From the IMG/VR virus record IMGVR_UViG_2541047734_000008, positions 1-45,329 of that record: 45,329 nucleotides of DNA; one strand, written 5' to 3'. The notes beneath the pieces are model-generated. The model worked only from the letters and a program-made list of their open reading frames with translations. It was not told the origin of the DNA and did not search any database. Source of the stretch: a virus. Taxonomy: Duplodnaviria; Heunggongvirae; Uroviricota; Caudoviricetes. The translations under genes were made by a program, and so were the position numbers. This document shows positions 5,946 to 36,250 of this stretch, one piece after another (position 1 is the first letter of the stretch; every line of letters begins with the position of its first letter).

Positions 5946-8900
5946 CCCGACGCGATGACTGCATAATTGACACAACCCTGCTGTCGATCAGATCCACCAG
6001 TCCCCTGGCTGAGCGCGCATCTATCTCGCCATTGCTCCCTTGATTCTGAATGCTGATGTGATACACGGGAGAATAAACAAATCCACCGCCACCATTCACA
6101 TTTCCAATGGCCCTGACCCCAAGAGAGCCGTCCGCTGCCCGTGTCAGTGGCATGATTGCTTCAGGCCCGGCCTCGCCCATCAACCCGGCACCTTTCGCAA
6201 AAGCAAAATACGTCGGTGTATCCACAATAGTGTTACTGTAAGCACTCAGATTTGCCGATGTGTAAACACCACCTTTTGCGTTTGCCACTGCACCGGAAAG
6301 CCAGTCGCCGACTGTACCAAGCCATCCTCCGGCACCGGACATGCTTTTGGAAAGTGACTTCAGCCCGTTAACGATGGCAGCGTTCATCAGAATTTTTGAA
6401 ACTTCCTGGAGAATTGAACTCCCCCAGTTTCTCCAGTCCACAACATTTCCGGCCAGTGCATCGGAAATATTTGATACCAGCCCGTCCATCGTGGAAACGA
6501 CAGCATCTGCCGCCTGTGAAGCATAATCGGTGGCACTGTCTGCCCAGTTGGTCAGTCCCTCCTGGAGTCCGGCATTCCAGTTATTACGTAAAGCATCGGC
6601 CTTTGCATAATAATTCTGCTGATCGCTGAGACGCTCTTCCAGATATTTTTTATTCAGTTCTTTCTCCTGTTTCCACAGGGCTTCTTCAATTTCTCCGGCC
6701 TGATACTGTCTCAGCAGCTCGTTATTTTTCTGCTCAAACGCCTGCCGGATACTCCACATTTCCTGGAGTCGTTCACGCATCCGTGAGCCTTCACCATATC
6801 CCAACAACTGCGCTTCGTCAGATGCCCGGGCACTGGCATTACTGTCCGCCAGACTGCTCTCATACGCAGCAAGCTGCTCACGAATCTTTTTCTGGTCGAT
6901 GAGTGCTGCATTCTGCAAAAGCGTTTTTTTCTGCGCTTCTGACAGGGTTGATAATTCGCCCTGACTGACCTGATATTTCATCTTAGCCAGTTCAGTATTC
7001 TGCCCTGCCAGTGCTATTTGTTCTTTTTGCTGTTTAATCAGCCGTTTATAAATATCTTCTGTTTTTTCCGCTTCGGTCTTTTTATGCGCTTTGGGTTTAT
7101 TTGCCTGGTTATTTCGCCAGGCATCCAGTGAGTTATTGATATAATTCTGCCTGGCTGTCTGATACGCCTCTCCCACAAAGCCGAGATCATCCGCAGCATA
7201 ACCCAAGCGGGCACGCTCACGGGCTTCCCCCTTCAGGCGGGACAGAGCCAGTTCGCGCTCGCTGTTATTCAGTGCAGTCTGCTGTTTATCATCCAGGGTT
7301 GCCTGTGGTAGCCGTAACGGTACATTCACCAGCCCCTGTCGCTGCTGAAGTAATTCATTACCGAGCCCGAGAAGGCGATTAAACTCGGTATGCTGCCCAT
7401 TCATGATCAACAGGGACTGATACGCTTTGTTTTGTTCCGCGGCCTGTTGACGGATCAACGCCACCCGTCGCTCCTCCAGCCCGGCAAGCACATCCTGAAT
7501 GGATTGCGCTTTGCCCTGCATTTGTGTGAGACGGGACTGTTCAACTGCCAGTTGATTTGTTGCTTCTGCAAGCCCTTCTGTGACAGTTTTTACCGACGTC
7601 ATGTGGTTAATCATAAAACCGTTATCGGTTGTCCAGCCCGGGTTTGCCAGCACATACTGATAGCCAGCAATTTTTTCCTGTAAGGATTTAATCTTACTTT
7701 TCTGCTCGTCAATTAACCTGTTTTGCTCATCAAGTGCCTGCCGCGTCATTTCCTCATTATCTGACGCTTCAGGAAGCGACATTGCCGACGTTTTCTGGCG
7801 AATTTCGTCGATTGTTGCGGCATACTGGCGTGCAGATTCTCTGGCCTGCTCCTGATTCTGATACATCGTGTACCAGGCCGTCGCCCCCAGCATGACGAGT
7901 CCCGGCACACCACCAACCAACCCCAGCGCACCACTTAACAGACGACTCCCCACTGACGTGACAGTATTCAGCGTTGTCTGTGCCGCTGTTCTGGCCGCAA
8001 TATTACGGGTAAGTGACGCCTGGGCAGCTGTCAGCTTCGCTTCTGCTGCGGCCTGCCTTTCGGTACCGCGAGCAGCAACAACCGCCTGTTGCGCACGATA
8101 AACCGCCGCACGCGCCCTGGCGGTTGCTATCTGTGTCCCCCGAAGTTGCGCTTCAGCAAGAGCCACTTCGTTTCTGGCTGCAGTAATTAATCCGGCAGTT
8201 GCAGATCCAGCAGACGACGCCATATTGCCAAAATATCGGGCTACCCCGACGGCAACCAGTGCGCCAGCTGCAGCAGCCACGGTATCAATATTGTCTGCAA
8301 CACCATTCAACACCCCGGTGAGTGTCTTTGTCACTCCGCTTGCCTCGTTCGCACCACCAACCCAGGCCATAAAGGCGTTTTCAACTTTGGTTGCAGAGGA
8401 TGAAACAGTATCAGGCATTGCTGCATATTCATCACGCAACGCCCCAAGCTGACTAATCAGTGCAGGAACAACCTTATCGGCGGTCAGTTTTCCGTTATCC
8501 GCCATGGCCTTCAGATCCTTACGGGCAACACCCATTCCCGCAGCCAGCGCACGAATAACACGATCGCCGTTCTCATTCACAGAGTTAAATTCTTCACCGC
8601 GCAGCACTCCCTGCGCCAGTGCCTGACTGAACTGCGTGATCACCGAACTGGCTTCTGCTGTACTGGCACCGGATAATTTCAGGCCCGTGGAGATCGCCTC
8701 GGTGACTTTCAGTACCTCCTCAGAACTGTAGCCATACTCCCGCATGGAAGCTGCAGAGCGGGCAAAAAGGCTGGCGTTATCAGAAAACGCCGTTCCCGTT
8801 CTCTGGCTGATTGCCATTAATTCACGTTGTGATACCTGAAAATCATCACTGGACTGTGAAGCCTGCTTCAGACGGGCATTTACTGAATTCCACTCATCGG

Positions 8901-15633: not shown

Positions 15634-16370
15634 TTAAAGCGAGCGGATGCCCACGCTGATCAGATGTTCAGACAGATCCAGCTCCGGTTCACCACCATTG
15701 ACCAGCATCCGGCTCATTGCTGTAAACATCGCAACAGGGCCGTCGATTTTGGCTTCCAGCGTGGATTTATTCGGGAAGATATTGTCGTTTTTGTCCGGTT
15801 TTACCGTAACGTTAGACATCATCCAGTTCATGACCGGATGATTGCTGTGATGGAAACGCCCGGCATAGACCAGTGATTCCGTTTCCTTCATGGCCTCTGA
15901 CAGATTGCGAACCGTCTGCGGAACCTCCACCAGCGGTATCCCTTCTTCAGCCAGTGCCAGGCTGAACTGCATCGCGCTCCACGGGTCAAATCCCAGTTCC
16001 CTGAGGTTTTCACCACCAATCCATTCCAGTAAGTCACTTTTTATCTGAGCATGATCGATAACATCACCATCCGTCAGAATCAGCTTATCCATCTCCGCCC
16101 ACTTCCGGTAAAGTTCTGCCTGCTGCCGCGAGCATCGTTCCAGCCGTCCTTCCGGAAGCCAGAATTTAAAATCGGCATGAACATGCCCGTTATCCGTTCG
16201 CCAGAGTTTTGCCGCCGCACAGATATCAATCTTATGAGCAAGGTCAACGCCGACCCACATGGGATACGTTTTCAGCTCATGTCGTGGGGCAATGTATTCG
16301 CACTTCTCCCACTTAATCATGTCCATCCAGGCAGACTCTGCTGTTACCCACACATTCATGTGTTTGGTAA
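15634..16370 (-). pseudogene. Prophage terminase large subunit, C-terminal (nuclease-domain) fragment
   Basis: 241 aa ORF (..NVWVTAESAWMD..VGVDLAHKIDICAA..) aligns to the last ~243 aa of the intact island TerL; in-frame upstream codons ..NILTKH end at a stop inside island DNA; no ATPase domain. Confidence 0.85.
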
Positions 16371-16810: not shown

Positions 16811-16885
16811 ATCCCTGAAAGTGGGTGCCGATAATACTGAAAATTTATTCCATTAAATGAGCATTATCCTCTCTCATCCATTCCG

Positions 16886-18890: not shown

Positions 18891-19175
18891 CTTTTTTCGC
18901 CCAATTATTTTCAAAAAAAATCCCGTGCACAAAAATTTGAGGAGGCGGTCGGTGTCCGGCAGGGACGGTTTCGTCCTGAAAACCTCCCCCACCCCCTCTG
19001 ACAGCCTCACCAGCGATTGCGAAAACATTCCATGACCTCGCGGTCACGGTCGGTTAATCGCTTCGCTGTGGTGCGTTCTGTGCGCCCTGTCCTGTTAGCT
19101 TTGTGCCCTGTCTCCTGTGTCTTCCATAAGTCACGCTGCCTTATCAGTCCACGTATCAGCCTGTTTTGCTCCTGT

Positions 19176-19616
19176 TCAGTCATCATCGCCATACATCCAG
19201 TCGTTACGATGTGCCGCCCGTTCTTCCTGCTCGCGATACATACCCGCCTTACGGTTCGCTTTCGTGGCTGGATCTTCCCGTGTCGTCTTACGGTTGTGGC
19301 ACGTCTGGCACAATGCCTGGTGGTTCCACTCAGGCCAGAAGAGAACATCACCGCCGCCATTGATGGGAATGATGTGATCCACCACAAGAGCTGGCGTATA
19401 AATCCCCTTAGCCAGACAACGCACGCATAACGGGTTTTTGCTCAGGTACAGGGCGCGGTATTTGTCCCACTGTCGGGAATACCCGCGCGCGCGGCGGTGT
19501 CCCCGTCTGGCATCCTCTGCACGCCATGCAGCCCGCCTGTGCTCTTCACACTTGCCGGACTTCACGCGCTTATTACAGCCCGGCTCAGTGCATCGCCTTA
19601 ATGGTTGCCACGGCAT
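19176..19616 (-). CDS. Island HNH endonuclease
   Basis: 146 aa, Cys-rich N-terminus, ..VDHIIPINGGGDV...NHQALCQTCHNRKT.. HNH motif; located upstream of terS. Confidence 0.8.
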   Translation of the reverse strand: MPWQPLRRCTEPGCNKRVKSGKCEEHRRAAWRAEDARRGHRRARGYSRQWDKYRALYLSKNPLCVRCLAKGIYTPALVVDHIIPINGGGDVLFWPEWNHQALCQTCHNRKTTREDPATKANRKAGMYREQEERAAHRNDWMYGDDD

Positions 19617-19915
19617 CAGTACACCCCCACATCACGATAAACCGACCAGAGCGCAGAAATAGCCATAGGCAGTTCAGACTGCTCCACTGGTGAAACTGCT
19701 TCCCTGTTCTCGTACAGGAAAGCGATGTACATCAGGCAACCAACACGCATTGCCGGGGTAAATTCCAGCCCGTCTTCAAAACGTTTCCCGATATGCTTCT
19801 GGCAGGCTTCCAGCGCCGCATCGGTATACATTTTCAGAAGTTCGCCTTCTCCGGAAAAGTCATCAAGGCGAAGATGTGCCCTGACCTCATCAGGTGTAAT
19901 TTTTTCTTCACTCAT
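19616..19915 (-). CDS. Island head-tail connector protein (gp6-like)
   Basis: Start at MSEEKITPDEVRAHLRLDD..; gp6-like. Confidence 0.6.
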   Translation of the reverse strand: MSEEKITPDEVRAHLRLDDFSGEGELLKMYTDAALEACQKHIGKRFEDGLEFTPAMRVGCLMYIAFLYENREAVSPVEQSELPMAISALWSVYRDVGVY

Positions 19916-21122
19916 CTTTTTCACCTTTAATTTCCACCGTCTGCTTCCATGCCTGGCTGAATTCGTCGCCACCTTCGCGCGGCGGCATCCCCTCACGTTC
20001 GCGGGCTTCGTTCGGATTCATGATCCCGTTCTTAATCCCTTTCTCATACGTGGCGTAACGCTCGGTAGGGGTGGCGCGCAGTAAATCGGCTGAATCAAAC
20101 TCAACCAGATAACGGGTACCAGGTACGGGAGAAGCCACCAGCAAAGCGGCCTTGATTTGCTGTTCGAAGTTCGCCAGCCACGGACGCATTGTCATAGTCA
20201 GAAACGCGCGGCTTGCCTCACTGAAATTGCTGTAGGTGCTGTTGCTGTATTCCTGAAGAAAAATCGGCGACACGTTGAACATACGGGCAATGTCTTCAAT
20301 GGAGAAGCGACGGGAGGCCAGCCATTCCGCATCCTGGTTACTCATCCCCAGTTGCCTGTAATCCATGCCCCCTTCAAGGATTGGCGTTTTTCCGGCATTT
20401 TTCGCCCCCTTATAGCGTTCCAGAGCATCTAATGCCTGTTTACCTTTCACGCCGTCCAGCCATTCGCCTGACGTGATAATCCCTGCCGCCATCATGCCAT
20501 CTTTCATAATGCTGGCTCCGTGGCGCTGTTGAGCAAGGCCAAGCCCCAGCGCCTCACGGCAAATCGTGACAGGGGAGCGCCCCAGAAAGCCATCATCCGA
20601 GGCATAGCGGAGATGCAGAACTTCTTCCTGTAAATACGTGCGTACCGTTCCTGTATAGGGTTCGGTGATGGTATAGCGGTATTTGTGTGCGCCTGTGCGT
20701 TCCGGTACAACACACCCCGGCGCATAAGGATGAAGTGATTTTGGCTGACCGTCCCGCCCCCACTCAATAACCGCATAGGCGTTACCGTTCAGCAGGCAGT
20801 GACGCATCATTGTGCGTTTAAACTGGTAAGGTGTCTGGCACGAATTAGGCTGCTCATTCAGCAGAATATCGACCGGGTGACTGTCCAGCCATTCCCGCGC
20901 CTCCCTGCCCTTGTCATTGCGTACCAGATACAGATAACACGGCATCGTGGCCACCGCCTCAGCGATGACAGAAACCGCGTTCATCACAGCAGGCAATGAT
21001 TCAGCCGTCCCGGCAGAAACATATTCTCCGGATCCGGTATTCGGTACGCCGGACAGCGCCAGAAAATCATCAATGGACAGGTTACGCAGATCGCTTTTTT
21101 TACGACTAAAAGGCCACCACAT
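19908..21122 (-). CDS. Island portal protein
   Basis: About 405 aa from MWWPFSRKKSD..; HK97-type portal, homologous in places to the prophage portal (..RPMILEMGLDW.. versus ..TPILEGGMDY..). Confidence 0.85.
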   Translation of the reverse strand: MWWPFSRKKSDLRNLSIDDFLALSGVPNTGSGEYVSAGTAESLPAVMNAVSVIAEAVATMPCYLYLVRNDKGREAREWLDSHPVDILLNEQPNSCQTPYQFKRTMMRHCLLNGNAYAVIEWGRDGQPKSLHPYAPGCVVPERTGAHKYRYTITEPYTGTVRTYLQEEVLHLRYASDDGFLGRSPVTICREALGLGLAQQRHGASIMKDGMMAAGIITSGEWLDGVKGKQALDALERYKGAKNAGKTPILEGGMDYRQLGMSNQDAEWLASRRFSIEDIARMFNVSPIFLQEYSNSTYSNFSEASRAFLTMTMRPWLANFEQQIKAALLVASPVPGTRYLVEFDSADLLRATPTERYATYEKGIKNGIMNPNEAREREGMPPREGGDEFSQAWKQTVEIKGEKDE

Positions 21123-21123
21123 A

Positions 21124-21684
21124 TCACAACCCCGCCAGTTCAGCCCAGCGATGACGATTATTTCCTGTCGGGCGTAATTCAGGGTGCTGTGCAAACAACG
21201 AACGGTGGGCAATCTCCACGCCGGATTCGGGATAAGCAGGCATCGACGTTATCGTGATTTCACGGAGTTCTGCGGCGGTAACAGTGCGCAGATACGGTTT
21301 TTGCGCGATATTCCACTCTTCGCATAATGCGCGAAAGCCAAAGCTCATTCCTGTAATGTCGCCACGCTCCACCAGCGTAAGCACATCTTTTCCAAGCTGG
21401 GTATCAGGCGGTGTCAGTTCAAAACGTAGCCCGGTGTTGTCCTCAGTCAGTACCAGTGTTCCGGATTTGGTGCGCCCCAGCAGTCGGGTATAGTCATGCT
21501 CATACAGGCAGCGCACATCATTACCCGCCGCCAGATAGTCAGCAAAAGCCCCCGGCGTGAACTGTTCGCGGAATTCGTCCCAGATAATTTCTGAAAGGCT
21601 GTTCCAGCGAACGGCATAACCCACCAGTTTTTTATCGCTGGCGGTCAGTTCAGATGTACGGATTTCAAAATCGGTATTTTGCAT
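21124..21684 (-). CDS. Island prohead protease
   Basis: Start at MQNTDFEIRTSEL.. (Met 73 of track ORF), ..KKLVGYAVRWNSLSE.. Confidence 0.8.
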   Translation of the reverse strand: MQNTDFEIRTSELTASDKKLVGYAVRWNSLSEIIWDEFREQFTPGAFADYLAAGNDVRCLYEHDYTRLLGRTKSGTLVLTEDNTGLRFELTPPDTQLGKDVLTLVERGDITGMSFGFRALCEEWNIAQKPYLRTVTAAELREITITSMPAYPESGVEIAHRSLFAQHPELRPTGNNRHRWAELAGL

Positions 21685-21733
21685 CGGTGTACTCCATAAA
21701 GCTGAAAAAGGAGGCCGAAGCCCCCTTTGCTCA

Positions 21734-22879
21734 TTACTTGCCAGCCTGAATTTCCAGAATCTTGATGGCGTTCGAATCCACCACACCACCGCCCAGATAT
21801 TTCTGGGTATAGATGTTAATGAATCCAGGTTCGCTGAAATCCGGACGGGTACGCGTACCGGTTTCATGGTCAACGATGAAATAACCGCGCTTAAAGTCAC
21901 CTACTGCAATCACACCGTCCGGCATAAATTCCAGATATTCAACCGGAAGCCCCAGCAGAGAATCAGGATCACCAGCCTGTAAACGATCGCGCCAGATGTA
22001 ATCACCAGTGGCATTTTTCAGTTTTTGTGCGGAGGCGGCTGTATTTGAGTTCATCACCCATACAGCTTTTTTGCGGTACTTATTGCGCAGCGTAAATTTC
22101 AGGTCAATCAGCATGTCGGCGCTGAGACTGCCAGTAACTTTTTTCGTCTGGAGCGTACCGAAAGGACGGGTTTTGTCGTTATCCGCAGTGCGCGGAAAAG
22201 CCAGGAAACCTTTAGCTTTTTTCTCGCCATCACCGGAAACCAGATCCGTTTCTTCGGTATCAACGAAAGTGTCGCCAATTTCAGAAGATAACCAGCTCAT
22301 AATATCGACTTCGGAAAAATCGATAATTTCCTGAGTGGTTTTTGGGTAAGCGTAGATCGGATACAGGCGGATACTGACTTCATTCAGTTTTGGGGTTGCC
22401 GTCTGGTTACGTGTAGTGCCTTCTTCACCGTGTTCAACGACCGCGCCCCCGGCAGAAACCAGTTGCTTAAATTCATTGCTGTGAATGGTTTTAACAGTAC
22501 AGATTTTACGCATCACCGATTCATCAGAAAGCTGACGCATAATTTCTCTGTTCAGTTCCGGGATAACCGTATAACCACCATCAGCCGGGACACTGCCGGA
22601 CAGGTTGCGGGTTTCCCCGGTCAGAATGTAAGAGCGCAGTTCGTCTTTGGTTATTTTCTCTTCGACGGAAACACCAGGCTGGTTACGTTCTTCATCAGCC
22701 ACAGATTCGAGGCGGGAAATTTCTGTGTCGAGGGAATCGGCTTTTGCACGCAGTTCATCAAACTGTTTGCCCTCGTCATCGTTCAGGCTGCGGTTTTCAC
22801 TGTCGGCTTTTTCCAGCAGGGATCGCATCTGGTTTTTCAGGGCGGTTTTTTGCTGGCGGAGTTCGATTAATTTCTTCAT
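21734..22879 (-). CDS. Island major capsid protein (HK97 family)
   Basis: 381 aa; coiled-coil delta domain then ..KGFLAFPRTADNDKTRPFGTLQ..GYFIVDHETGTR..; parallels the prophage capsid. Confidence 0.9.
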   Translation of the reverse strand: MKKLIELRQQKTALKNQMRSLLEKADSENRSLNDDEGKQFDELRAKADSLDTEISRLESVADEERNQPGVSVEEKITKDELRSYILTGETRNLSGSVPADGGYTVIPELNREIMRQLSDESVMRKICTVKTIHSNEFKQLVSAGGAVVEHGEEGTTRNQTATPKLNEVSIRLYPIYAYPKTTQEIIDFSEVDIMSWLSSEIGDTFVDTEETDLVSGDGEKKAKGFLAFPRTADNDKTRPFGTLQTKKVTGSLSADMLIDLKFTLRNKYRKKAVWVMNSNTAASAQKLKNATGDYIWRDRLQAGDPDSLLGLPVEYLEFMPDGVIAVGDFKRGYFIVDHETGTRTRPDFSEPGFINIYTQKYLGGGVVDSNAIKILEIQAGK

Positions 22880-23152
22880 GAAGGTTTTCTCGTATTGGTT
22901 AAGATTCAGGACGTGAAACCAACACGGAGGGAGCGCCGCCCGACACTCTCGGCATCTCGCAGATCAACCCGGCATCGCGCAGGGGTCAGGCGGCATTGTG
23001 GCGGCTCACGTCTGAGTGCCACACGCCAACATATACATAAAAATCAGTATGTAAACATCAGCCAGAATCACCGAACAACCTGGAACAACCACGAACAAAT
23101 AATTTACAAAACCTGAAAAAAAGACCCGGGAAAAATCCGGGCCTTTATCGCT

Positions 23153-23401
23153 TTATTGTTTCACTGGATCCCGCATTCTGCGTCTTATTTTCCACAGATA
23201 TTCGATCATCGCTTCCACCTGCTCACGGTTGGTTGCGAAAATTTCCCCGGTCAGTGAGCTACGCAGAAAATCATGATGATCCACAACAAACAACGCATCG
23301 GAAGAAAGCAGACGGCGATATTTTTTTGCTGTCGTGGTTTCCAGATCATCAAAACCATGAAACTTTTTATGTTGCTGGACTTCTTCAAATGTCACTGGCA
23401 T
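23153..23401 (-). CDS. Island hypothetical protein
   Basis: 82 aa ORF in operon orientation. Confidence 0.4.
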   Translation of the reverse strand: MPVTFEEVQQHKKFHGFDDLETTTAKKYRRLLSSDALFVVDHHDFLRSSLTGEIFATNREQVEAMIEYLWKIRRRMRDPVKQ

Positions 23402-23934
23402 GTATCCCCCTTTGCTGCCCGGCGCTGGCGCTTGTGCTTCTCATTCAGCGCCATCAGCCGCGTTTCTGCCTCCTGCTGTTCCTGTGGTGTCACTTCCCCA
23501 CATGGCTGGCCTTTCAGGTCGTAGCGTACCCCACCAGCAACCAGGGCGCGGTAATAGCGCGGAGACTGCGCATAAGATGCCAGCGTCGCACGTAATGCCC
23601 CCGGCCCGAATGCCAGCCCCCTGACGGCGAGATCCTGCATCAGGTCGTCGAATATTCCCACCTTAAGCGGCTTCGGTGCTTCCCTGTTGAATAAGTCAGG
23701 CCACATCTCAGTGAGGCGGTTAACGCGCCTGCGGTTTTTGCGCTGGCGTTTGGTCATATGCCGCCACGGTGTCACCCCTGTGGGCTGCCCTTTGCGGCTC
23801 TGCTGTGCGTTCTGATTGCCGGGTATCACTTTATGCGCCGATGTGGTTTTATCCCGCTCTTGCGCCGCCTGCGTCGTTTTCTGCGGCGTGCCGTAAATGC
23901 CTTTCGGTTTTCGGTTAATGGTCAGCTTTGTCAT
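23392..23934 (-). CDS. ProQ/FinO-domain RNA-binding protein (island)
   Basis: 180 aa, basic N-terminus, ..LTEMWPDLFNREAPKPLKVGIFDDLMQDL...RATLASYAQSPRYYRALVAGGVRYDLKGQP.. resembles the FinO/ProQ fold signature. Confidence 0.6.
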   Translation of the reverse strand: MTKLTINRKPKGIYGTPQKTTQAAQERDKTTSAHKVIPGNQNAQQSRKGQPTGVTPWRHMTKRQRKNRRRVNRLTEMWPDLFNREAPKPLKVGIFDDLMQDLAVRGLAFGPGALRATLASYAQSPRYYRALVAGGVRYDLKGQPCGEVTPQEQQEAETRLMALNEKHKRQRRAAKGDTCQ

Positions 23935-23970
23935 GCCTTCCCCTGTAATTACTCTGTTCGCTGTTGTGAA

Positions 23971-24396
23971 TTAAAACGGTATGTTATCCCCGTACAGGTC
24001 ATCGTGCTGGCCTGTCTGTTGTTTTGCCCTGTTCAGTGCGTCAGTAGCTTGGCTCTGCTGGCCTTTTTTGCCGCCCGGTCGCGCCGTTCGCGCACTGATT
24101 ACGCTGTCTGCGATGACCTGCCAGCCCTGCCGCGTTTCGCCGTTCTGGCCTGTCCACTGGCTCACCTGCATGTTACCCGCCACGCTCACCAGTTCGCCTT
24201 TGTGGTGCTTTGCCAGTGCGTCGGCCTGTCTGCCAAACGCCAGGACGGATAACCACATCGTCGCCGTTCCGTCATCTGCCTGGCTGCACGGCAGGGGAAC
24301 CGCCATACTCGCCATCGCCATTTGTGTCCCCTTGCTGGTGGTCTTTAACTGCGGGTCAGCCACCAGCCGCCCGTAAGCCGCTATCTGTGCTGTCAT
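23971..24396 (-). CDS. Single-stranded DNA-binding protein (island)
   Basis: 141 aa OB-fold-like with acidic C-terminal tail ..DDLYGDNIPF. Confidence 0.75.
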   Translation of the reverse strand: MTAQIAAYGRLVADPQLKTTSKGTQMAMASMAVPLPCSQADDGTATMWLSVLAFGRQADALAKHHKGELVSVAGNMQVSQWTGQNGETRQGWQVIADSVISARTARPGGKKGQQSQATDALNRAKQQTGQHDDLYGDNIPF

Positions 24397-24644
24397 GCTG
24401 TCTGCTCTCCGGTTTTAACGTTGATGGTTGTCACCTGTTCCGCTTCGGCAATCTCCCGCTCTGTCAGCGTGGCAAAATTTGCCGCCGCCGTGGTCATGAA
24501 TGCGCTTATCAGTTCGGGATGTGCTTTCGCGTATCCTTCTCCGGCATGGCGGTCTATTGTTCTGATTGCCACCTTTAAGGCATGCTCTGTCATGTCTAAT
24601 GCGCGATATTTTGGCGCTGTCTTATCTCTGGTTTTTCTGGTCAT
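24393..24644 (-). CDS. Island hypothetical protein
   Basis: 83 aa; overlaps ssb start. Confidence 0.4.
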   Translation of the reverse strand: MTRKTRDKTAPKYRALDMTEHALKVAIRTIDRHAGEGYAKAHPELISAFMTTAAANFATLTEREIAEAEQVTTINVKTGEQTA

Positions 24645-24648
24645 TCCT

Positions 24649-24848
24649 CACTGCTCCCCACTTTTACTACCCACTTTTTGAAATTACCCAACGTCTCCCC
24701 ACTTCTTTTTTTTGTGATTCTAACGTGATGTTTTTCAATGTATTTTTTATTCCCCACTTTTTGGGGTATATACAGGTGGGAAAGTGGGGAATCGCGTTTC
24801 AATTTTGTTAAATTCCCCACACTCCCCACTTTTACTACCCACTTTTTA
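24649..24848. repeat. Iteron cluster / candidate island replication origin next to rep
   Basis: TCCCCACTTTTACTACCCACTTTTT at 24649 and again at 24822; additional CCCCACTT copies in both orientations; AT-rich centre. Confidence 0.7.
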
Positions 24849-26261
24849 CAGTGGGCGCACGTCATCACCGTCAATAGCAATAACGCCATCACCTTCCAGC
24901 TTGTACAGCCAGCGCCGGAAGTGTTTCATCTCATACCCCAGCTTTTTCATATCATCGCGCAACAACGGAATTGTGCATTTATCGCCGCGCTGTGTGCGTG
25001 AACGGATACAGCCCCATAGCGCGGCATGATTCTCCGTCTTGTTCCCGGCTTCCTCGATGCGCTCCAGTTCAACAGGTGGGCGCGGCTTATCCACAACCAC
25101 CAGCGACGTGATTAACTCCCCGTCAGTGTCGGTAAAAAGCTCTACCACGCGTAAATCATATGCAGCCTCTTTCAGTTCCTCCGCGTCCTTCATTTTGGTA
25201 CAGGAGATAACCAGGGCTTCACTGTCCGCACCTTCACGGCGAATACGGTATTCAGCGTCCAGAGATGCACGGAATGCACTGGAACCACGCGCTCCCTTTG
25301 TTTCATCCTTGCCGGAATGGTGAACCACCAGCACCGTGGCCCCTGTGCGTCGTTTCAGTTCGTCACATCCACGGATAAACGCCCCCATATCCCGCGCGTC
25401 ATTTTCATCATTACCGCCAAAACACCGCGCCAGCGTATCCAGAATAATCATGCGTACCGGTTTACCCGTTTCCCTTTCAACCTGGCGGGAAGCGATGACC
25501 ATTTCATCGACATCAAGCGGGACTGCCGGAAAAATCGGGCGGTTTACCAGGTACAGATTTTCCACCCGTTTATCATTAACGATTTCCCATGCCTTGATAC
25601 GGCGGGGGACACCAATGCCACCTTCACCGACAACATACATCACCGAACCATGCGCCACCCTGCGGCCTCCCCAGTGGCGACCCGTGGCAACATGACACGC
25701 CCAGGAACACGCGAGGAACGATTTATAGGAACCGCTCGCGCCGTATGTGCTGCACAATGAATTAGCCGGAATCACGCCCTTAACGACATAATCAAGCTGT
25801 GTGTCGTATCCTGCAGATCCAATACTCATTGGTAGCGTGGTTTTTCGCTGGCTGTATTGCTCGTCAGTAAGTATTTCCCCGCGCTCTGCCTGTTCGCGGA
25901 TCCGTTGCAGGTAGTCGTGCCAGTTCTCCAGCTTCTGGTTGTGCATTCCCTCAGGGTAATAATTCGCATCCCGTACACCTGCCGCCGCCAGCTTTTGCCC
26001 GATAGCATTAATATTTGACGGCTTGATGTGGCCTGCCTTGTACAGCCGGACACAATAGCGACCATCGTCGATAATTTTCAGGTCTGCCAGTTCGTCAAGC
26101 TGGCTGTCTCCAAGCCATACAGGCGGAACATTGTCGCCAGCAAGTCGCCCGTCCTGCTCCTGCCATTGTTTCGCGTGCGCCCAGGCATCACTACCCGCAA
26201 AAATAATGACTTCGGTCATTTTGTCGTGCGGCTGTTTTTTTAAGTTCGGTGCCAGTTTCAT
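24846..26261 (-). CDS. Island replication initiator: primase/helicase-type Rep (RecA-like AAA ATPase)
   Basis: 471 aa; Walker A-like GASGSYKSF, Walker B MIILDTL; sits beside iterons as PICI pri-rep genes do. Confidence 0.7.
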   Translation of the reverse strand: MKLAPNLKKQPHDKMTEVIIFAGSDAWAHAKQWQEQDGRLAGDNVPPVWLGDSQLDELADLKIIDDGRYCVRLYKAGHIKPSNINAIGQKLAAAGVRDANYYPEGMHNQKLENWHDYLQRIREQAERGEILTDEQYSQRKTTLPMSIGSAGYDTQLDYVVKGVIPANSLCSTYGASGSYKSFLACSWACHVATGRHWGGRRVAHGSVMYVVGEGGIGVPRRIKAWEIVNDKRVENLYLVNRPIFPAVPLDVDEMVIASRQVERETGKPVRMIILDTLARCFGGNDENDARDMGAFIRGCDELKRRTGATVLVVHHSGKDETKGARGSSAFRASLDAEYRIRREGADSEALVISCTKMKDAEELKEAAYDLRVVELFTDTDGELITSLVVVDKPRPPVELERIEEAGNKTENHAALWGCIRSRTQRGDKCTIPLLRDDMKKLGYEMKHFRRWLYKLEGDGVIAIDGDDVRPL

Positions 26262-26557
26262 TTTTTCCCCCTGAATCCGTTAAGCATTTTTCTTATGGCC
26301 TGAATATTTGCCCGTGCCTTCTCTTTGCTGGTGGGCTGATTGCGCGGCGCGGTCTGTACCAGGGAAAAATCACGCCGGAACTGATAAACAGGCATCACAC
26401 AGTCATAGCCGTACCCATCACGGCGGTAAATAACGCACCGTCCCGCCACGCTTTTAATCGTTACCGTGCCGCCATAGTTATCCCGGAAAATATCGCCGGG
26501 GCGGATTTCAGGCCGAACGGAGCCGCTGGCAGTAAAGCCAGAATTTTTCTGTTTCAT
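26258..26557 (-). CDS. Island hypothetical protein
   Basis: 99 aa ORF, operon context. Confidence 0.4.
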   Translation of the reverse strand: MKQKNSGFTASGSVRPEIRPGDIFRDNYGGTVTIKSVAGRCVIYRRDGYGYDCVMPVYQFRRDFSLVQTAPRNQPTSKEKARANIQAIRKMLNGFRGKK

Positions 26558-26562
26558 GGTTT

Positions 26563-26772
26563 TTATTCCTCTGCGCGGGCCTTGTTGTGTATTTCCATAA
26601 CCGCGTTTAATTCATCAATAACCGGGGTTAACAGAGTGCTGAAAGCAGAAAATAAATCCCCCCCCTGTTCGGCATGAACTTCGGTTAATTTAATTAATAC
26701 TGCTTTCATTTCCAGTGCCCGGTTTAATGCATTCTCAGAATGAATAAGAACATCGAAAGGGATTTTATCCAT
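26563..26772 (-). CDS. Island hypothetical protein
   Basis: 69 aa ORF. Confidence 0.35.
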   Translation of the reverse strand: MDKIPFDVLIHSENALNRALEMKAVLIKLTEVHAEQGGDLFSAFSTLLTPVIDELNAVMEIHNKARAEE

Positions 26773-27025
26773 GGCTTACATCCTCCGTGAATTTTCTTCT
26801 GTACCGTGCCTCTGCCACATATTCCGCATAGTCCGACGCAATATTGAGAATATCGCTACCCGTTCCTGAATGTTCGGCGGTTTCCAGTAAAAAACTTGCA
26901 GCTTTTACCATGTCAGCAACACATAACAGCGCAATATCTGTATCTTCCGGTGCGCCATCAAATTCCTGTTTCAGGGCATTAAAACGATCATCACGCATAA
27001 CCCCCCCCATTTTCACAATCAGCAA
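26765..27025 (-). CDS. Island hypothetical protein
   Basis: 86 aa ORF. Confidence 0.35.
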   Translation of the reverse strand: MLIVKMGGVMRDDRFNALKQEFDGAPEDTDIALLCVADMVKAASFLLETAEHSGTGSDILNIASDYAEYVAEARYRRKFTEDVSHG

Positions 27026-27230
27026 TTAGGATGGCTTTAGCCTCATTCAGTGCCATATCAGCGGTAAGCTGTGCGTAGGCCAGCGAATGGGGGATTATTT
27101 CCCCTGTATATTCCGTCTCTCTGGTAATGTGTTTTTCTGCGGTTGCTGCCGTGCATGAAATATCAATCAGCGCGTGCATCAGCGTTTTGATGGCTTCGGC
27201 GGCTGCGTCCGGACGGGTGTTATTGCACAT
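26991..27230 (-). CDS. Island hypothetical protein
   Basis: 79 aa ORF. Confidence 0.35.
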   Translation of the reverse strand: MCNNTRPDAAAEAIKTLMHALIDISCTAATAEKHITRETEYTGEIIPHSLAYAQLTADMALNEAKAILIADCENGGGYA

Positions 27231-27426
27231 GGCGCACCCCCTGACGAATACGGGCGGCGAATACCATCACACAGCCAGCCGGGGATTGCTGGCGTGCTTC
27301 CTGTTCGCTGGTGGCCTCAATGGTAATCACGCGCGGTTGTGCCGTGCTCAGGGCGATAAAACGCCAGATATATTTATTCAGGTTGTGCGAGTCCCGCCCT
27401 TGCGGGTGTGTGGTATGATTTCTCAT
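27220..27426 (-). CDS. Island small protein, first gene of leftward operon
   Basis: 68 aa from MRNHTTHPQGRDSHNLNKYIWRFIALSTAQP..; GAGG RBS; the track's 358 aa extension upstream is not protein-like. Confidence 0.45.
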   Translation of the reverse strand: MRNHTTHPQGRDSHNLNKYIWRFIALSTAQPRVITIEATSEQEARQQSPAGCVMVFAARIRQGVRHVQ

Positions 27427-27502
27427 AGCTACCTCGATACTCTTGCTATCGTTGGTGGTTAGACGCCCTGCATGTGTTGCGAGCACTGCGGGGCGTTGCT
27501 TA

Positions 27503-27603
27503 ATTTGAGTGACAAAACTCAAACTGTGCGCACAGATTAAAATCATGTGTGCGCACATGTCAATACTTAACATCTCATTTTTTTTGCTGTATTGTGTGCG
27601 CCC
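27503..27603. promoter_or_regulatory. Divergent regulatory region with palindromic operators TGTGCGCACA
   Basis: TGTGCGCACA at 27525..27534 and 27549..27558 (within CATGTGTGCGCACATG), half-site GTGTGCGC at about 27593; lies between divergent gene starts 27426 and 27632. Confidence 0.55.
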
Positions 27604-27631
27604 ATAAAGTCCATTTAAGTGAGGTGCATCA

Positions 27632-27829
27632 ATGTCTAGCGGTAACACAAACAACAAATCAGCAAAGAAAAATATTCGATTCCCACATGAGCTTATAGAT
27701 GGGATTGATGCCAGCGTTGAACAAGAAAAATTAACTAATCCTAGTGCTAATTTTTCCGCATGGGTCTTAGATGCCTGTGGACGCAAATTAAAATATGAAC
27801 AGCGCCGGAAGGCCAAAGAATCAGAATAA
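27632..27829 (+). CDS. Small ribbon-helix-helix (Arc/MetJ-like) DNA-binding protein, candidate island regulator
   Basis: 65 aa; ..KKNIRFPHELIDGIDASVE..NFSAWVLDACGRKL.. beta-strand plus two helices pattern. Confidence 0.5.
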   Translation: MSSGNTNNKSAKKNIRFPHELIDGIDASVEQEKLTNPSANFSAWVLDACGRKLKYEQRRKAKESE

Positions 27830-27871
27830 TCACTATCAGCGCCGTGGTGTGAGTAACTACGGCGCATTGCT

Positions 27872-28060
27872 ATGCAGGACAACACAATGACCGATAAAGA
27901 ATTGACCAAAACATTATCACCGACACGGAAAAGACGGCGCAGAAAGATAGAGCATGAATCAGAAAGATTCGCACCTTGTTCGTTTGCTCTTGAGAAATTC
28001 CTTAAAGAGCGCAGGAAAAAGCTCTCGTTGCAAACCCTGGAACGAACCAAATCTGACTGA
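27872..28060 (+). CDS. Island hypothetical basic protein
   Basis: 62 aa ORF downstream of the RHH gene. Confidence 0.35.
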   Translation: MQDNTMTDKELTKTLSPTRKRRRRKIEHESERFAPCSFALEKFLKERRKKLSLQTLERTKSD

Positions 28061-28126
28061 TCACATTGCCCACCAGCCGCAAATGTGGCATTGTTGGTGA
28101 TGCTTTTGTTTTCCCTTGTTCCCACT

Positions 28127-28155
28127 GGCGACCCTTTTGCGGTCGCCTTTGTTTT
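28127..28155 (+). terminator. Intrinsic terminator
   Basis: GGCGACC-CTTTTGC-GGTCGCC followed by TTTGTTTT. Confidence 0.6.
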
Positions 28156-28251
28156 GCCTGTTATCCGGCAATAGTGGCGCTTCGTCACCTGTCTGATATA
28201 ATTCCACAGCTTATATTCATTTTTTGCGCAGTAGGTTAATTGTTCGCAAGG

Positions 28252-28282
28252 GCGCTCCGGCAACGGGGCGCTTTTTGTTTTT
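28252..28282 (+). terminator. Intrinsic terminator (GNRA-loop hairpin)
   Basis: GCGCTCCG-GCAA-CGGGGCGC followed by TTTTTGTTTTT. Confidence 0.6.
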
Positions 28283-28440
28283 ACCCACCAGCACAATAAA
28301 AATCTTCATTTTCCATTTTTGTAAAATTTCATGCTTTCCGGACGACTGGTCATATGTCATTTTTTAGCAGAAGATTTTGCCTTGCTGGTGGGTAGCTTCC
28401 CGGTCAACACGATGTACCGTATAATCAACACCGCGTGTGG

Positions 28441-29019
28441 TTACTGAATACGCTCACCAAAGTAAAACTCAGGCTGGTATTCACGTATCAGCCTTTTTTC
28501 TTCTTCCTCCAGCTCACGCTTTTTGCGCTTACATGCCTGTAGCTCCCTCCCCTTCTCACTGGCACTTATCTGGTATTGCTCTTTGCGGCGGGAAAAATCC
28601 TGTAATGCGCCCCACGGGATACCATAAGCCCCCGTTTTTCTGATACCCGGTATCACATTTCTGAATACCCAGTTACTGAAACGATGAGCAAATGTGCCAG
28701 GCGTCGTTGCTTTGCGGCTGCGGGCTATTAGTTTGTAGAAACCTGACTCGGAGATAATGCTCATATTCTGATTTCCTCCGGGGGTGTAAGTTAAATTTAC
28801 TCCCTTTTCGTCATCATCAAGCATCTGCAACGCCGTACGCGAATTGGTCAGTTCCAGCGCAGCACAAACATCCTTTGCAACAAACCACGGATCGCCGTTT
28901 AGATACACCACACGAACATCCACGCCATCAAAGCGCAGAACGACCAGATCACGAATATCACAGAATTTTTTCACATGACGTGCGTCACCCTTGCCCGTCA
29001 CGGCAATATTTTTATTCAT
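28441..29019 (-). CDS. Bro-N domain protein (antirepressor-like)
   Basis: 192 aa; ..FDGVDVRVVYLNGDPWFVAKDVCAALEL.. Bro-N signature. Confidence 0.7.
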   Translation of the reverse strand: MNKNIAVTGKGDARHVKKFCDIRDLVVLRFDGVDVRVVYLNGDPWFVAKDVCAALELTNSRTALQMLDDDEKGVNLTYTPGGNQNMSIISESGFYKLIARSRKATTPGTFAHRFSNWVFRNVIPGIRKTGAYGIPWGALQDFSRRKEQYQISASEKGRELQACKRKKRELEEEEKRLIREYQPEFYFGERIQ

Positions 29020-29076
29020 TGCTTTTTACCTCACATACAAAAAACCCCGCATTGCGTGGTGCGGGGTTGTCGGTAA

Positions 29077-29355
29077 TTACTTATTGGCGTTTTTGTATGG
29101 GCTGTTTACTTCCTTTACTCCTGGCGGATGCATAACCCACCAGAGCACATCAGAGAGCAACCAGGAAACAGACACTTTCCCTAAATGAGCACGAGCAGGA
29201 AATGCTCCCTCCTGTTCAAGTACCCAACGTCTGCTTCTTGAAAGCCCGGTACGATTGGCACACTCATGTTCGCGTATACGGCGATCATACGGTTCGCCAT
29301 GATCTTTCAGAATCTGAATGCGTTCTTCGGGTGTAGGATAAATAAATTTTTGCAT
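29077..29355 (-). CDS. AlpA-family transcriptional regulator (second copy)
   Basis: Start at MQKFIYPTPEE..; AlpA-type HTH. Confidence 0.6.
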   Translation of the reverse strand: MQKFIYPTPEERIQILKDHGEPYDRRIREHECANRTGLSRSRRWVLEQEGAFPARAHLGKVSVSWLLSDVLWWVMHPPGVKEVNSPYKNANK

Positions 29356-29418
29356 AAAAATATCACCTATAAAAAAACCCGCCAAAAGACGGGTTGATTA
29401 TATCTCATTTAATTTAGC

Positions 29419-29652
29419 TCAGGGTTTCCATTCACCTTTTACCCATTCCAGCACCTCAGATAAGCGCCAGACTTTTGTTTGTGGGCCAATACATATTTTT
29501 CGTGGAAATTTTCCTTCCTTTTCAAGTAACGATCTGTGTCTCCTGCCAAGAGCGGTTAACCATGCACATTCATCTTCCTTAATCATCCTGTCGATTGTTT
29601 CATCATTTTCAAGTTCTTCACGCGTAACTATTTGAATCATTACTGTCACCAC
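29419..29652 (-). CDS. AlpA-family transcriptional regulator
   Basis: 77 aa; ..KICIGPQTKVWRLSEVLEWVKG..; immediately downstream of int. Confidence 0.7.
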   Translation of the reverse strand: MVTVMIQIVTREELENDETIDRMIKEDECAWLTALGRRHRSLLEKEGKFPRKICIGPQTKVWRLSEVLEWVKGEWKP

Positions 29653-30841
29653 TAATTTGCTTATTCAGATAGTCGTACCACCAGTTCATAGCTTCTTTTT
29701 TTCTGTCCATATACTGGCTTCTGTTATAAACCCCGGCAACACCGCCTAATGTGTGCCCAAGCAACTGTTCAACCACATTATGTTCAAAACCATGATCACT
29801 TAGTTTTGTGGCAAACACTCTTCGCATATCATGCGCCGTCCATTTCTCCGAGTGTTTCATCCTTTTCCATGTCTTACCGATAGTTACGCTTGCCGTACAC
29901 TGACGCATATCAAACCCAATCACATTTTCTTTGTTACCTGTTATTTTTTTTAACGTAACTAACCAGTTAAACATGCCATCAGGAATCGGTCTGATTATTT
30001 CCCTGCCATTTTTGCTATGATCAGCGGGAACGCGCCATAATTTCTTATCAAAATCCCACTCTACCCAGGACGACAGTAATACTTCTGACAGTCGACAACC
30101 AAAAACTACCAGGAAACGTAAAATAATTCGGTTTTCATATGATAATTCGTGATTGTCATAATCAGTATTAATACTTCGCCATAAATCTCTGATTTCATCA
30201 TCTGTTAAAACCCTGCTTCTTCGCGCAGACTTTTTTCCCACATCACAGACCTCAAGATCATCAATTTCATGACTAATCGCGTATTTTCTTACCCTACAAA
30301 ATTTAAGCGCCTGTTTTGATATACGCAACAAAGCTCCGGCCTGTACAGGTGCTACTTTTTTTATTTTGTCAAAACACTTAATCCACATAGATATAGAGCA
30401 ATCACTAAGTGGTACATGACCAATCACCGGATAAATATGTTTACCAAAGCACTGCCTGATATGTTCTGCTCCCCTACGCTTATCCATTGCATAATTATCA
30501 AGCCAGTATTCAAGTGCCTCACGAACGGTAACAGGTTGCAAGGTGGCTTCCCGTTCAATTTTTATCTGAATCCGTGGATCTCTGCCCTCCGCAAGCCAGG
30601 TTCGACACTGATCGCGCATCTCTCTCGCTGATTTGAGACTCAGATCAGGATATTTTCCAAGTGTCAGCCAGATGGGCGCGGTTCCCCTTCCCGCCAGTCT
30701 GTAAAAGAAAACAAAACTAACACATCCGTATTTACTGACCCGTACCGAAAGCCCGTTACCATCAGCGATGGTTTCCTGCCTCTCACTCCTGCGTCCAAGC
30801 AGGGAACGAAGTTTTTTATCGCTCAGTTTGTTTAGCGCCAT
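29618..30841 (-). CDS. Tyrosine integrase (P4-type)
   Basis: Start at MALNKLSDKKLRSL..; C-terminal catalytic region ..HDMRRVFATKL...LLGHTLGGVAGVYNRSQY..; adjacent to the island boundary. Confidence 0.9.
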   Translation of the reverse strand: MALNKLSDKKLRSLLGRRSERQETIADGNGLSVRVSKYGCVSFVFFYRLAGRGTAPIWLTLGKYPDLSLKSAREMRDQCRTWLAEGRDPRIQIKIEREATLQPVTVREALEYWLDNYAMDKRRGAEHIRQCFGKHIYPVIGHVPLSDCSISMWIKCFDKIKKVAPVQAGALLRISKQALKFCRVRKYAISHEIDDLEVCDVGKKSARRSRVLTDDEIRDLWRSINTDYDNHELSYENRIILRFLVVFGCRLSEVLLSSWVEWDFDKKLWRVPADHSKNGREIIRPIPDGMFNWLVTLKKITGNKENVIGFDMRQCTASVTIGKTWKRMKHSEKWTAHDMRRVFATKLSDHGFEHNVVEQLLGHTLGGVAGVYNRSQYMDRKKEAMNWWYDYLNKQISGDSNDSNSYA

Positions 30842-31012
30842 GTGATTTATAACCCGTTTTTGCAATACACAGTGCAATACACAAATGATGAAAACAGCCA
30901 GAACCTTCCAGAAAAAACAAAAACGACGAACAAGAAAAAATCTTTTTCTTTCATTTGGTTACTAAAAAAATCAGGACAGGTCGCACTGTTGTTACGGCGT
31001 GATGTTACTTTC

Positions 31013-32040
31013 TTGGTAAAAAAATTCACCCGCGCAGAGACCTGTTCTTTCGCTTTTTTCGCCAGGCGACGCAGATCATCCCAGCGTTTACAGATGCCCA
31101 GGCCGGGATTCGCTTTCTGCCAGACCGTTTCATCAAACGGATCATCTCCCTCATCGAGGGTGTAAATAATCGCAAAGTAGGAGTCGTCTTTTACCGCGCC
31201 CTCCACGTCGCTGTTATAGCCACGCAATACCTTGATGGCGTAATCACGCTGCTCGTAACAAATCCCTTCCTTGTTAAACCCTGCCGTGGTGATACCAAAT
31301 AAAAGGGACTGCAGACGGGCACCGGTTGCCGTTTCCAGAACGTCCCACACGTCACGGGTTTTATGTGCATGCAGCTCATCAATAATGGCGCAGTGGATGT
31401 TCAGACCATCCAGGTTGTTTGCATCCGAAGAAAGCGGTTCAAATTTTGATGCGCTCTGCTCCTGGTAAATCGCCAGCTTGTTGAAATCAAACAACCGCCC
31501 GAGTGTCGACCGGGCTTTTCTGACCATATTTTTGGCGTCTTCAAACACGATTCTGGCCTGGTCACGCGTGGTTGCGGCTGAATACACCTCAGCTCCGCCT
31601 TCACCATCTGCCCCCGTCATATACAGGCCGATACCCGATGACAGAGTTGATTTTGCGTTTTTACGGGCGACTTCGTTGTACGCCGTCCGGAACCGGCGCA
31701 CCATCACCGGACGTCCGCTGCCATCGCTGCGCATGACAACTTCCCCGGTCTCTTCATTGACCAGCGGAATGACAAAACCAAAAATATTAATGAGGATAAA
31801 TACATGCCAGTCCATCAACTCAATGGGCTGGCCTGCCAGCGCCCCTTTTACATGAGGCACAAATTTGTAGAAATTCAGGATGTGCTGCGCACGGGGTTCA
31901 CTGAAATAAATCCCCCGCTCTTCGCCGTACTTCAGATCATCAAGAAAACGCTGGCAGGCCAGGCGGACAAATTCGCCAGCAACAATTTCTCCTGCAACAA
32001 CACGTTCGGCGTAGCGGATCCCGTCAGCCACTTTTGCCAT
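31013..32040 (-). pseudogene. Prophage terminase large subunit, N-terminal (ATPase-domain) fragment
   Basis: 397 aa ORF with Walker-type ATPase region; homology to island TerL residues 1 to ~310 ends at ..ARVNFFTKK, then about 45 unrelated codons run into island DNA near the integrase. Confidence 0.85.
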
Positions 32041-36016: not shown

Positions 36017-36092
<76 letters not shown>

Positions 36093-36094
36093 AT

Positions 36095-36171
<77 letters not shown>

Positions 36172-36172
36172 A

Positions 36173-36249
36173 CTGGACCGCCACCGGGGACTCGAACCTC
36201 GCACACTCAACTTAAAGGGTTGACGCTCTTTCCTGATGAGCTAGTGGCG
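36173..36249 (-). tRNA. Atypical tRNA-like gene, anticodon UUU (Lys) by position, with C at position 33
   Basis: Acceptor CCGCCAC/GTGGCGG, anticodon stem TCAAC/GTTGA, loop CCTTTAA, T-loop TTCGAGT with one T-stem mismatch, CCA encoded. Confidence 0.5.
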
Positions 36250-36250
36250 G

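Follow-up and report, generated by a model that had tools for sequence, protein, structure and literature searches.

Here we show that the palindromic sites in the control region of a phage-inducible island overlap predicted promoter elements of two divergent genes, and that the sequence of these sites co-varies with beta-strand residues 12 and 14 of the small protein encoded beside them. Judged from sequence, the system is best read as a ribbon-helix-helix (RHH) repressor-operator switch that would sit within a nested eta/kil region of the P4 type in satellites of Gram-negative hosts. The 65-aa YlcI/YnfO protein is likely (with a probability of roughly 0.7) to be an Arc/Mnt-like RHH repressor encoded beside its own operators and occluding the promoter of the leftward Icd/Kil-replication-capsid operon. 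The literature that we searched names no repressor for Gram-negative phage-inducible islands and does not describe this module; the YlcI/YnfO switch would most likely supply the missing repressor of these elements.

The window (the whole stretch of DNA analysed, 45.3 kb) contains an E. coli phage satellite at approximately 16360-30880, a capsid-forming phage-inducible island (cf-PICI) which encodes an integrase, AlpA, a replication gene, and its own capsid, protease, portal, HNH, TerS, and TerL proteins, and which carries no tail genes. The island splits the large terminase (TerL) gene of a prophage: the ATPase domain together with positions 2-68 of the nuclease-domain profile is encoded at 32040..30847, and profile positions 64-283 at 16359..15634, both on the minus strand as are the island genes. 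This is the helper-embedded configuration described in PMC10111431, with the island facing the same way as the prophage late operon. A search for exact repeats of at least 15 nt between the island ends found none. The DNA matches, at 99%, a region of a swine strain that lies inside an Stx2e prophage, and the layout of the island is that of an island from O157 (L047).

At the right end of the island lie a tyrosine integrase gene (29618..30877, minus strand) and two AlpA-type genes (29385..29077 and 29652..29419, minus strand); a minus-strand terminator-like hairpin follows each of the two AlpA-type genes. A Bro-N domain protein matching phage anti-repressor families is encoded between the alpA genes and a long open reading frame described below (28441..29019, minus strand). 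The leftward operon begins with an Icd-like gene of 68 codons (27220..27426, minus strand), a member of the NCBIfam family NF033153 (E 1.5e-19) to which P4 Kil also belongs (E 1.6e-21), the link between Icd and Kil being made through this family model only. It continues with a DUF4222 gene, an AAA_25 helicase, SSB, a ProQ-like protein, capsid, protease, portal, HNH, TerS, and TerL; family matches thus agree with the initial annotation, in which the gene starting at 27426 headed a long minus-strand operon leading to rep and the capsid module. The large Stl-like repressor that it reported missing is indeed absent from the island.

Two perfect copies of a 10-bp palindrome and a half-site had been placed in this region beforehand, the copies at 27525 and 27549. 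Both copies of TGTGCGCACA are exact, the second starting at 27548, and the presumed half-site is a full-length copy. The palindrome occurs exactly twice in the window, at 27525-27534 (O1; 12-mer 27524-27535) and 27548-27557 (O2; 12-mer 27547-27558), while the third site, TGTGCGCCCA at 27595-27604 (O3; 12-mer 27594-27605), matches it at 9 of 10 positions and is the most degenerate of the three. In the 12-mer register common to related loci, the window sites read CTGTGCGCACAG, GTGTGCGCACAT, and GTGTGCGCCCAT, with spacings of 23 bp (O1-O2) and 47 bp (O2-O3). A first-order Markov model predicts 0.09 exact copies of TGTGCGCACA per window, and none of 300 simulated windows held two identical perfect 10-bp palindromes 100 bp or less apart, so chance does not account for the sites. 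The only other match in the window with a single mismatch, at 14934, falls within the prophage portal gene, outside the island. Replication iterons were also considered and rejected, given that the sites fall on promoter elements and follow the residues of the repressor.

Related loci were collected by scanning one genome per species, which gave 45 loci, and 41 non-redundant loci were used for layout and specificity counts. They derive from Serratia, Rahnella, Klebsiella, Pectobacterium, Xenorhabdus, Brenneria, Pantoea, Proteus, Morganella, Erwinia, Gilliamella, Orbus, and one Pasteurellaceae taxon, and many have an Icd-like gene on one flank and alpA plus integrase genes on the other. On the minus strand, the control region follows a conserved plan: TTGAC(G/A) is followed at once by O2, then by about 7 bases, TAnnnT, and O1, the last T of TAnnnT being the first base of O1. 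TTGAC is present at the leftward -35 in 38 of the 41 loci, TAnnnT at the leftward -10 in 37, the 23-bp O1-O2 spacing in 37, and an O2-O3 spacing of 44-47 bp in 32. In related loci, a TAT(A/T/G)GT hexamer is also kept directly before O3 on the plus strand.

In the window, the leftward promoter has a -35 element TTGACA (27558..27563, minus strand) and, after an 18-nt spacer, a -10 element TAATCT (27534..27539, minus strand), although the latter is ambiguous and could instead be TTTAAT at 27541..27536 with a 16-nt spacer. The predicted rightward promoter of the ylcI-like gene (27567..27595, plus strand) comprises TTAACA at 27567, 17 nt, and TATTGT at 27590-27595. O1 begins at the last base of the leftward -10 and spans the expected leftward start, O2 fills the promoter spacer and adjoins the -35, and O3 overlaps the end of the rightward -10 together with the expected start of the ylcI-like transcript. 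In window coordinates, then, the conserved layout has O1 and O2 bracketing the -10 of a promoter with a consensus -35. These positions, over spacer, -10, and start, argue for occlusion. The YlcI-like protein could instead bind its sites mainly as an activator or dual regulator, turning on the leftward operon after helper infection, for instance, much as P22 Mnt activates its own promoter; we regard this as unlikely, in that O1 and O2 occupy the spacer, -10, and start of a promoter whose -35 is already near consensus, O3 covers the other -10 and start, and only the six loci with an extra site have one upstream of a -35.

The ylcI-like gene (27632..27829, plus strand) encodes a 65-aa protein of the YlcI/YnfO (DUF3950) family, matching NCBIfam YlcI_YnfO_N (NF041551) with E 3.5e-16 and 59 bits (cut-off 30) and Pfam DUF3950 (PF13132) with 28.3 bits (cut-off 25). 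Homologues are few, forming 115 clusters at 90% identity and 131 representatives at 50% among 1.84 billion proteins, and the literature searched assigns no function to the family. Residues R16, F17, P18, F41, S42, W44, V45, and C49 are invariant among close relatives. The initial annotation called the protein RHH-like, and structure prediction bears this out: an AlphaFold model built from an 80-sequence alignment (pLDDT 85) places an extended segment up to residue 18 (block pLDDT of about 90 over residues 11-20) ahead of helices 19-35 and 41-63, with only a short basic tail after the second helix. This is the strand-helix-helix order of the Arc/MetJ/CopG fold, and on the strength of the model an RHH fold is predicted for the protein, with K12, N14, and R16 as the proposed base-reading residues of the beta-strand.

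Sequence comparison does not place the protein in a curated RHH family. No RHH Pfam entry matched the window protein, whereas 3 of 80 YlcI-family members also match Pfam CopG_antitoxin, and a profile search against PDB sequences gave no match. An hhalign comparison with Arc was not significant (probability 4.8); in this non-significant alignment AKKNIRFP stands in register with PQFNLRWP of Arc, and K12, N14, and R16 fall opposite Q9, N11, and R13. The latter are the base-contacting residues of Arc. A Foldseek search with the model returned no significant match, and the best structural matches include the RHH antitoxins CopA_SO, Rv0298, VapB, ParD, and HicB. StnY, AmrZ, CdbA, SvtR, NikR, omega, and HicB are also named in connection with the protein.

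Since antitoxins figure among these matches, since the ylcI-like and Icd genes always adjoin, and since overexpression of P4 kil kills cells (Forti 1999, as summarised in PMC10111431), the protein might be chiefly antitoxin-like, neutralising a toxic Icd/Kil product by contact, with DNA binding secondary. The two genes are, however, divergent rather than co-transcribed, and the short basic tail of the protein leaves it with no C-terminal toxin-binding domain, so that neither of these two marks of a type II RHH antitoxin was found. Moreover, homologues in lambda and lambdoid prophages lie beside cos and terminase genes with no Icd partner or operon, and we consider this explanation quite unlikely. 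The location of the lambda and lambdoid homologues also indicates that the role of the YlcI family is not always operon control.

The readout of the sites by the adjoining protein is predicted from their variation between loci. In the 12-mers the TG and CA arms are constant and the centre varies; it differs between loci and is the same at all three positions inside one locus. When compared with O2 of the same locus, the best match at O1 shows 1.5 mismatches and that at O3 2.4, while the same search in loci with a different O2 gives 4.2 mismatches for O1 (p 3e-27) and 4.0 for O3 (p 2e-11). Operator sequence correlates with residues 12 and 14 once the remainder of the protein is controlled for (partial Mantel r = 0.54, reached by none of 5000 permutations) but not with that remainder once these two residues are (r = -0.05), although Mantel tests on related sequences overstate significance.

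At least ten types of site sequence were found. Proteins with K-K-N at residues 12-13-14 accompany TGTGCGCACA in E. coli, Rahnella, Klebsiella, Xenorhabdus, and Erwinia, at 65-82% overall protein identity; those with Y/F-K-G accompany TGTTTAAACA in Xenorhabdus, Pantoea, Morganella, and Pectobacterium; T-K-G goes with GTGCA(C/T)A(T/A)ACAC in Serratia, Brenneria, Pectobacterium, Xenorhabdus, and others; K-K-H goes with GTGTG(A/T)ACCCAC in two loci (Pantoea and Xenorhabdus); and R-K-D goes with TGTCCG(C/T)ACA in Gilliamella and Orbus. A Proteus locus (L026) is an exception to this rule, combining K-K-N with GGTGTACACCCACC-type sites. That the centre follows residues 12 and 14 is what would be expected of direct readout by an RHH ribbon, and does not sit easily with a host factor or other island protein as the binder.

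AlpA is itself a known DNA-binding activator of such islands (PMC6092414), and it, a host factor, or a helper repressor could bind the palindromes while the YlcI-like gene stood by. Site changes, however, track residues 12 and 14 of the adjoining protein and not its remainder, and a host factor would have no need of at least ten site sequences across closely related hosts, which makes such a binder very unlikely. A CRP-type site in particular was rejected, as only 2 bp separate the TGTG and CACA arms, where CRP needs 6, and the sequence differs among loci.

What had been described as a 205-bp divergent intergenic region is a gap between annotated genes, but the whole of it lies inside a minus-strand open frame of 358 codons (28296..27220) which resembles P4 eta. 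This frame crosses the ylcI-like gene in antisense, then the operators and both promoters, and its last part is the Icd-like gene. In 32 of the 41 loci, the minus-strand frame that is in phase with ylcI has no stop codon over the 200 nt upstream of ylcI, the corresponding numbers for the other two frames being 0 and 3. No Pfam match (6 loci) and no phage match was found for the N-terminal part of the long frame. Substitutions at the three codon positions number 2/1/6 in Icd and 1/1/17 in the ylcI overlap, while elsewhere in the long frame they are even (e.g. 30/35/36). The frame thus appears to be held open without a conserved protein sequence, and ylcI is the best candidate for the source of the constraint in the overlap. 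A small open reading frame 3' of ylcI (27872/27887-28060), annotated in CFT073, has counts of 10/4/8 at the three codon positions. The ylcI transcript is predicted to end at one of two terminator-like hairpins on the plus strand (28127..28147 and 28248-28275), both inside the long minus-strand frame.

It is extremely unlikely that the real gene is the long one and the 65-aa ORF only a spurious frame antisense to it, with the palindromes as RNA hairpins or coding repeats of the long gene: although the long frame is conserved, was the one called by the annotators of the packaged element vB_KppS-Ant (who left ylcI uncalled), and has third codon positions coinciding with those of ylcI so that conservation of either frame mimics that of the other, it shows no third-position excess outside Icd and the ylcI overlap, while ylcI homologues stand free in lambda and 150 other phage records without a long antisense frame, the protein is predicted to fold confidently as an RHH, and a Shine-Dalgarno-like purine run precedes the ylcI ATG in nearly all loci.

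A candidate leader element of the leftward transcript (27450..27496, minus strand) sits between O1 and the Icd start and consists of a hairpin, with arms at 27463-27472 and 27487-27496, followed by a near-invariant UCUAACCAC on the RNA. Across 31 distinct sequences, 94% of cells pair, with changes on both sides in 46 cells; none of 500 shuffles reached this level, and slid controls pair at 29-44%. In many loci a T-rich tail follows the hairpin on the plus strand, so assignment of the leader to the minus strand is only putative.

The module is found in satellites across Enterobacterales, Orbaceae, and Pasteurellaceae, and 1741 of 5426 complete E. coli genomes contain DNA resembling at least a part of the 901-bp Icd-YlcI region. 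Comparison with cf-PICI regulatory regions, as had been suggested earlier, recovered the same module in a capsid-forming island of O157, which has a 101-aa YlcI variant and GGTGAATACC-type sites, and likewise in EcCICFT073. In the latter, a 59-aa YlcI-family gene diverges from an Icd gene almost identical to that of the window, the sites follow the same plan (GGTGTGGCCCAC twice and a weaker third), and an open frame of 434 codons extends from the end of alpA to the Icd stop. A repressor has been described in neither island, EcCICFT073 being the model island of PMC6092414. In an O157 island at pepT/roxA the flanking parts are preserved, namely Icd, the leader hairpin, and the sequence to the right of ylcI, and the ylcI slot holds a different 57-aa RHH-like ORF, with weak similarity to Arc and YlcI, and two ATGGTAATTACCAT palindromes.

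For the repressor switch, we infer binding by the YlcI-like protein, the sign of regulation, the stoichiometry, and a role in immunity, and propose the following mechanism. One or more dimers would reach into the major groove of the three 10-12-bp palindromes with the beta-ribbon at the N-terminus (residues 12, 14, and 16). Occupancy of O1 and O2 would exclude RNA polymerase from the leftward promoter and thereby keep off the toxic Icd/Kil-like gene and, after it, the replication and capsid-packaging genes, while at high repressor levels occupancy of O3 would bring about negative autoregulation of the ylcI promoter. As the residue/operator pairs, of at least ten types, differ among satellites, the module may act as an immunity specificity. 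By analogy with P4, the leftward promoter would fire on entry into a naive cell, and the repressor would then build up, silence it, and confer type-specific immunity.

Induction could, more speculatively, proceed by transcription from upstream, either AlpA-activated or helper late, which would bypass the repressed promoter and, running antisense to ylcI, collide with ylcI transcription. AlpA is the demonstrated activator of Gram-negative phage-inducible islands, and the only regulator that work on these islands found was this activator; overexpression of AlpA alone induces EcCICFT073 (PMC6092414), which makes such a bypass probable. Because EcCICFT073 carries the same module, the repressor is evidently not the sole gatekeeper. 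The position of the island inside the prophage late operon makes antiterminated helper late transcription a plausible, if speculative, input (after PMC10111431). The view of this region as the master control region of the island gains from the promoter overlap and from the co-variation of operators and residues over 41 loci, yet it overreaches, as the AlpA activator (PMC6092414), the presence of two alpA genes, and the co-oriented position inside the prophage late operon point to inputs besides the switch.

If the repressor reading is correct, it would probably provide a function for DUF3950, a domain shared by two genes of E. coli K-12 and by a lambda ORF that has not been annotated. It would also explain the silence and establishment of Gram-negative phage-inducible islands, predict mutually exclusive satellites, and yield a small toolkit of orthogonal repressor/operator pairs whose specificity can be read from two residues. 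A broader proposal, which we advance tentatively and at clearly less than even odds, is that Gram-negative phage-inducible islands, including EcCICFT073 and the capsid-forming islands, hold an unrecognised immunity system. This would be a swappable RHH repressor/operator cassette with at least ten specificities set by two beta-strand residues, giving heteroimmunity of co-resident satellites, and lying antisense inside a variable read-through ORF that may be kept open so that ribosomes behind AlpA- or helper-driven transcription stop termination and override the repressed promoter; it would be the protein-based equivalent of the RNA immunity of P4, with which it would share the eta/kil scaffold.

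Among known systems, RHH proteins of the CopG/omega type differ from the island protein in the sites that they read (omega 7-bp heptad repeats, CopG a 13-bp element) and in that they control plasmid copy number or partition and not the life cycle of a satellite. As with Stl (Rpr) of the SaPIs, the repressor gene and the replication/packaging operon diverge, and the control region separates the integrase side of the satellite from its replication side. Stl, however, is a larger, helix-turn-helix protein with a domain that captures a helper-phage protein, whereas the island protein has 65 aa, no homology to Stl, and no sensor domain, and the integrase gene is not co-transcribed with its gene. 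Gram-negative islands are known to be triggered by expression of AlpA (PMC6092414).

In protein and promoter architecture the island resembles immI of P22, where Arc and Mnt are likewise small RHH repressors of about 50-80 aa with an N-x-R-x-P strand motif (NIRFP in the island), and where divergent promoters, operators over core promoter elements, and autoregulation (proposed for the island) also occur. The corresponding motifs of P22 are NLRWP in Arc and NFRMP in Mnt. The island protein nevertheless has no significant sequence similarity to Arc, and where P22 has one operator of 17-21 bp, the island has three separate palindromes of 10-12 bp with 23- and 47-bp spacing. The controlled gene differs as well, being an antirepressor gene in P22 and, in the island, a satellite replication/packaging operon headed by Icd/Kil.

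The organisation of the operon as a whole resembles that of P4. In both, the early operon opens with a Kil/Icd homologue, which is nested at the end of a long ORF begun upstream of an internal promoter, with an AlpA/Vis-type gene upstream and replication genes downstream. The eta frame of P4 is visible in its sequence at 8821..8171, and PMC10111431, summarising Forti 1999, describes kil as the nested end of eta, the constitutive early promoter PLE as lying inside eta, and translation as preventing premature termination. A tblastn comparison of the long ORF and the YlcI-like protein with P4 gave no match. P4 silences its operon by RNA-mediated premature termination, unlike the island, for which we propose an antisense-embedded protein repressor gene and promoter operators. 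P4-type RNA immunity was rejected for the island: the Rfam models for the CI RNA and its seqA/seqC targets detected C4 (74.9 bits) and isrK (60.8 bits) in P4, which served as positive control, whereas island positions 26900-29700 matched neither at the Rfam gathering threshold or at E<=5. With the shared NF033153 family and the eta-like frame, this suggests that the island has a P4 scaffold in which a protein repressor replaces the CI RNA.

The island interrupts the large terminase gene of the surrounding prophage inside the nuclease domain (window 15634-16359 and 30847-32040) and lies co-oriented with the prophage late operon; this terminase-splitting, co-oriented insertion is a helper-embedded satellite configuration. 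Elsewhere in the prophage, three successive plus-strand ORFs (141, 116, and 537 aa; window 2319-4735) that stand amid minus-strand tail genes are taken to be a putative insertion sequence, and four tRNA genes, the sok antitoxin RNA, and the DicF RNA were detected (window 36021-36327, 39221-39396, and 44877-44928).

Within the region between ylcI, which encodes the proposed ribbon-helix-helix repressor, and the Icd-like gene that begins the leftward operon, a conserved leader hairpin followed by a near-invariant UCUAACCAC box occupies window 27450-27496 (candidate strand, minus), and strong compensatory changes were found in the hairpin among the 31 sequences compared. A 358-codon stop-free frame on the minus strand (window 27220-28296) runs antisense through the repressor gene, crosses the entire control region, and terminates as the Icd-like gene itself. 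In-phase stops are absent from this frame in 32 of 41 related loci, and the encoded amino-acid sequence is without constraint except in Icd and the ylcI overlap. Downstream of both alpA genes lies a terminator-like hairpin, one per gene, on the minus strand (window 29043-29068 and 29376-29395), such that transcription from the alpA promoters would extend into the Bro-N gene and the long ORF only by read-through. On the plus strand, a small basic ORF 3' of the repressor gene (window 27872-28060), itself followed by a terminator-like hairpin, has an annotated homologue in CFT073 and a retained stop position; its substitutions are distributed 10/4/8 over the codon positions, and a coding pattern was not seen.

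Comparison with other loci revealed one exception to the rule that the sequence of the proposed operator sites tracks beta-strand residues 12 and 14 of the YlcI-like protein, as the Proteus columbae locus (L026) encodes a K-K-N beta-strand, as in the window protein, yet carries GGTGTACACCCACC-type sites. In five loci, including ones from Serratia and Pectobacterium (L002, L003, L004, L011, and L017), a perfect match to the DnaA-box consensus TTATCCACA is present on the minus strand immediately downstream of O1, one of the three palindromic sites; this consensus was not found in the window.

Homologues of YlcI extend to lambdoid phages. In phage lambda (J02459, L048), an unannotated 64-aa homologue (...TRNIRFPNQMIEQI...) adjoins cos at 48112-48303 on the minus strand, a homologue is found at the equivalent position in approximately 150 lambdoid and Stx phage records, and two distant members of the family carry a fused small terminase domain. 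EcCICFT073 of E. coli CFT073 (L054, 6243-7053), a Gram-negative island that has been studied experimentally (PMC6092414), also contains the YlcI/operator/Icd module seen in the window; its sites there are GGTGTGGCCCAC, and a 434-codon open frame begins where alpA ends and extends to the stop codon of Icd.
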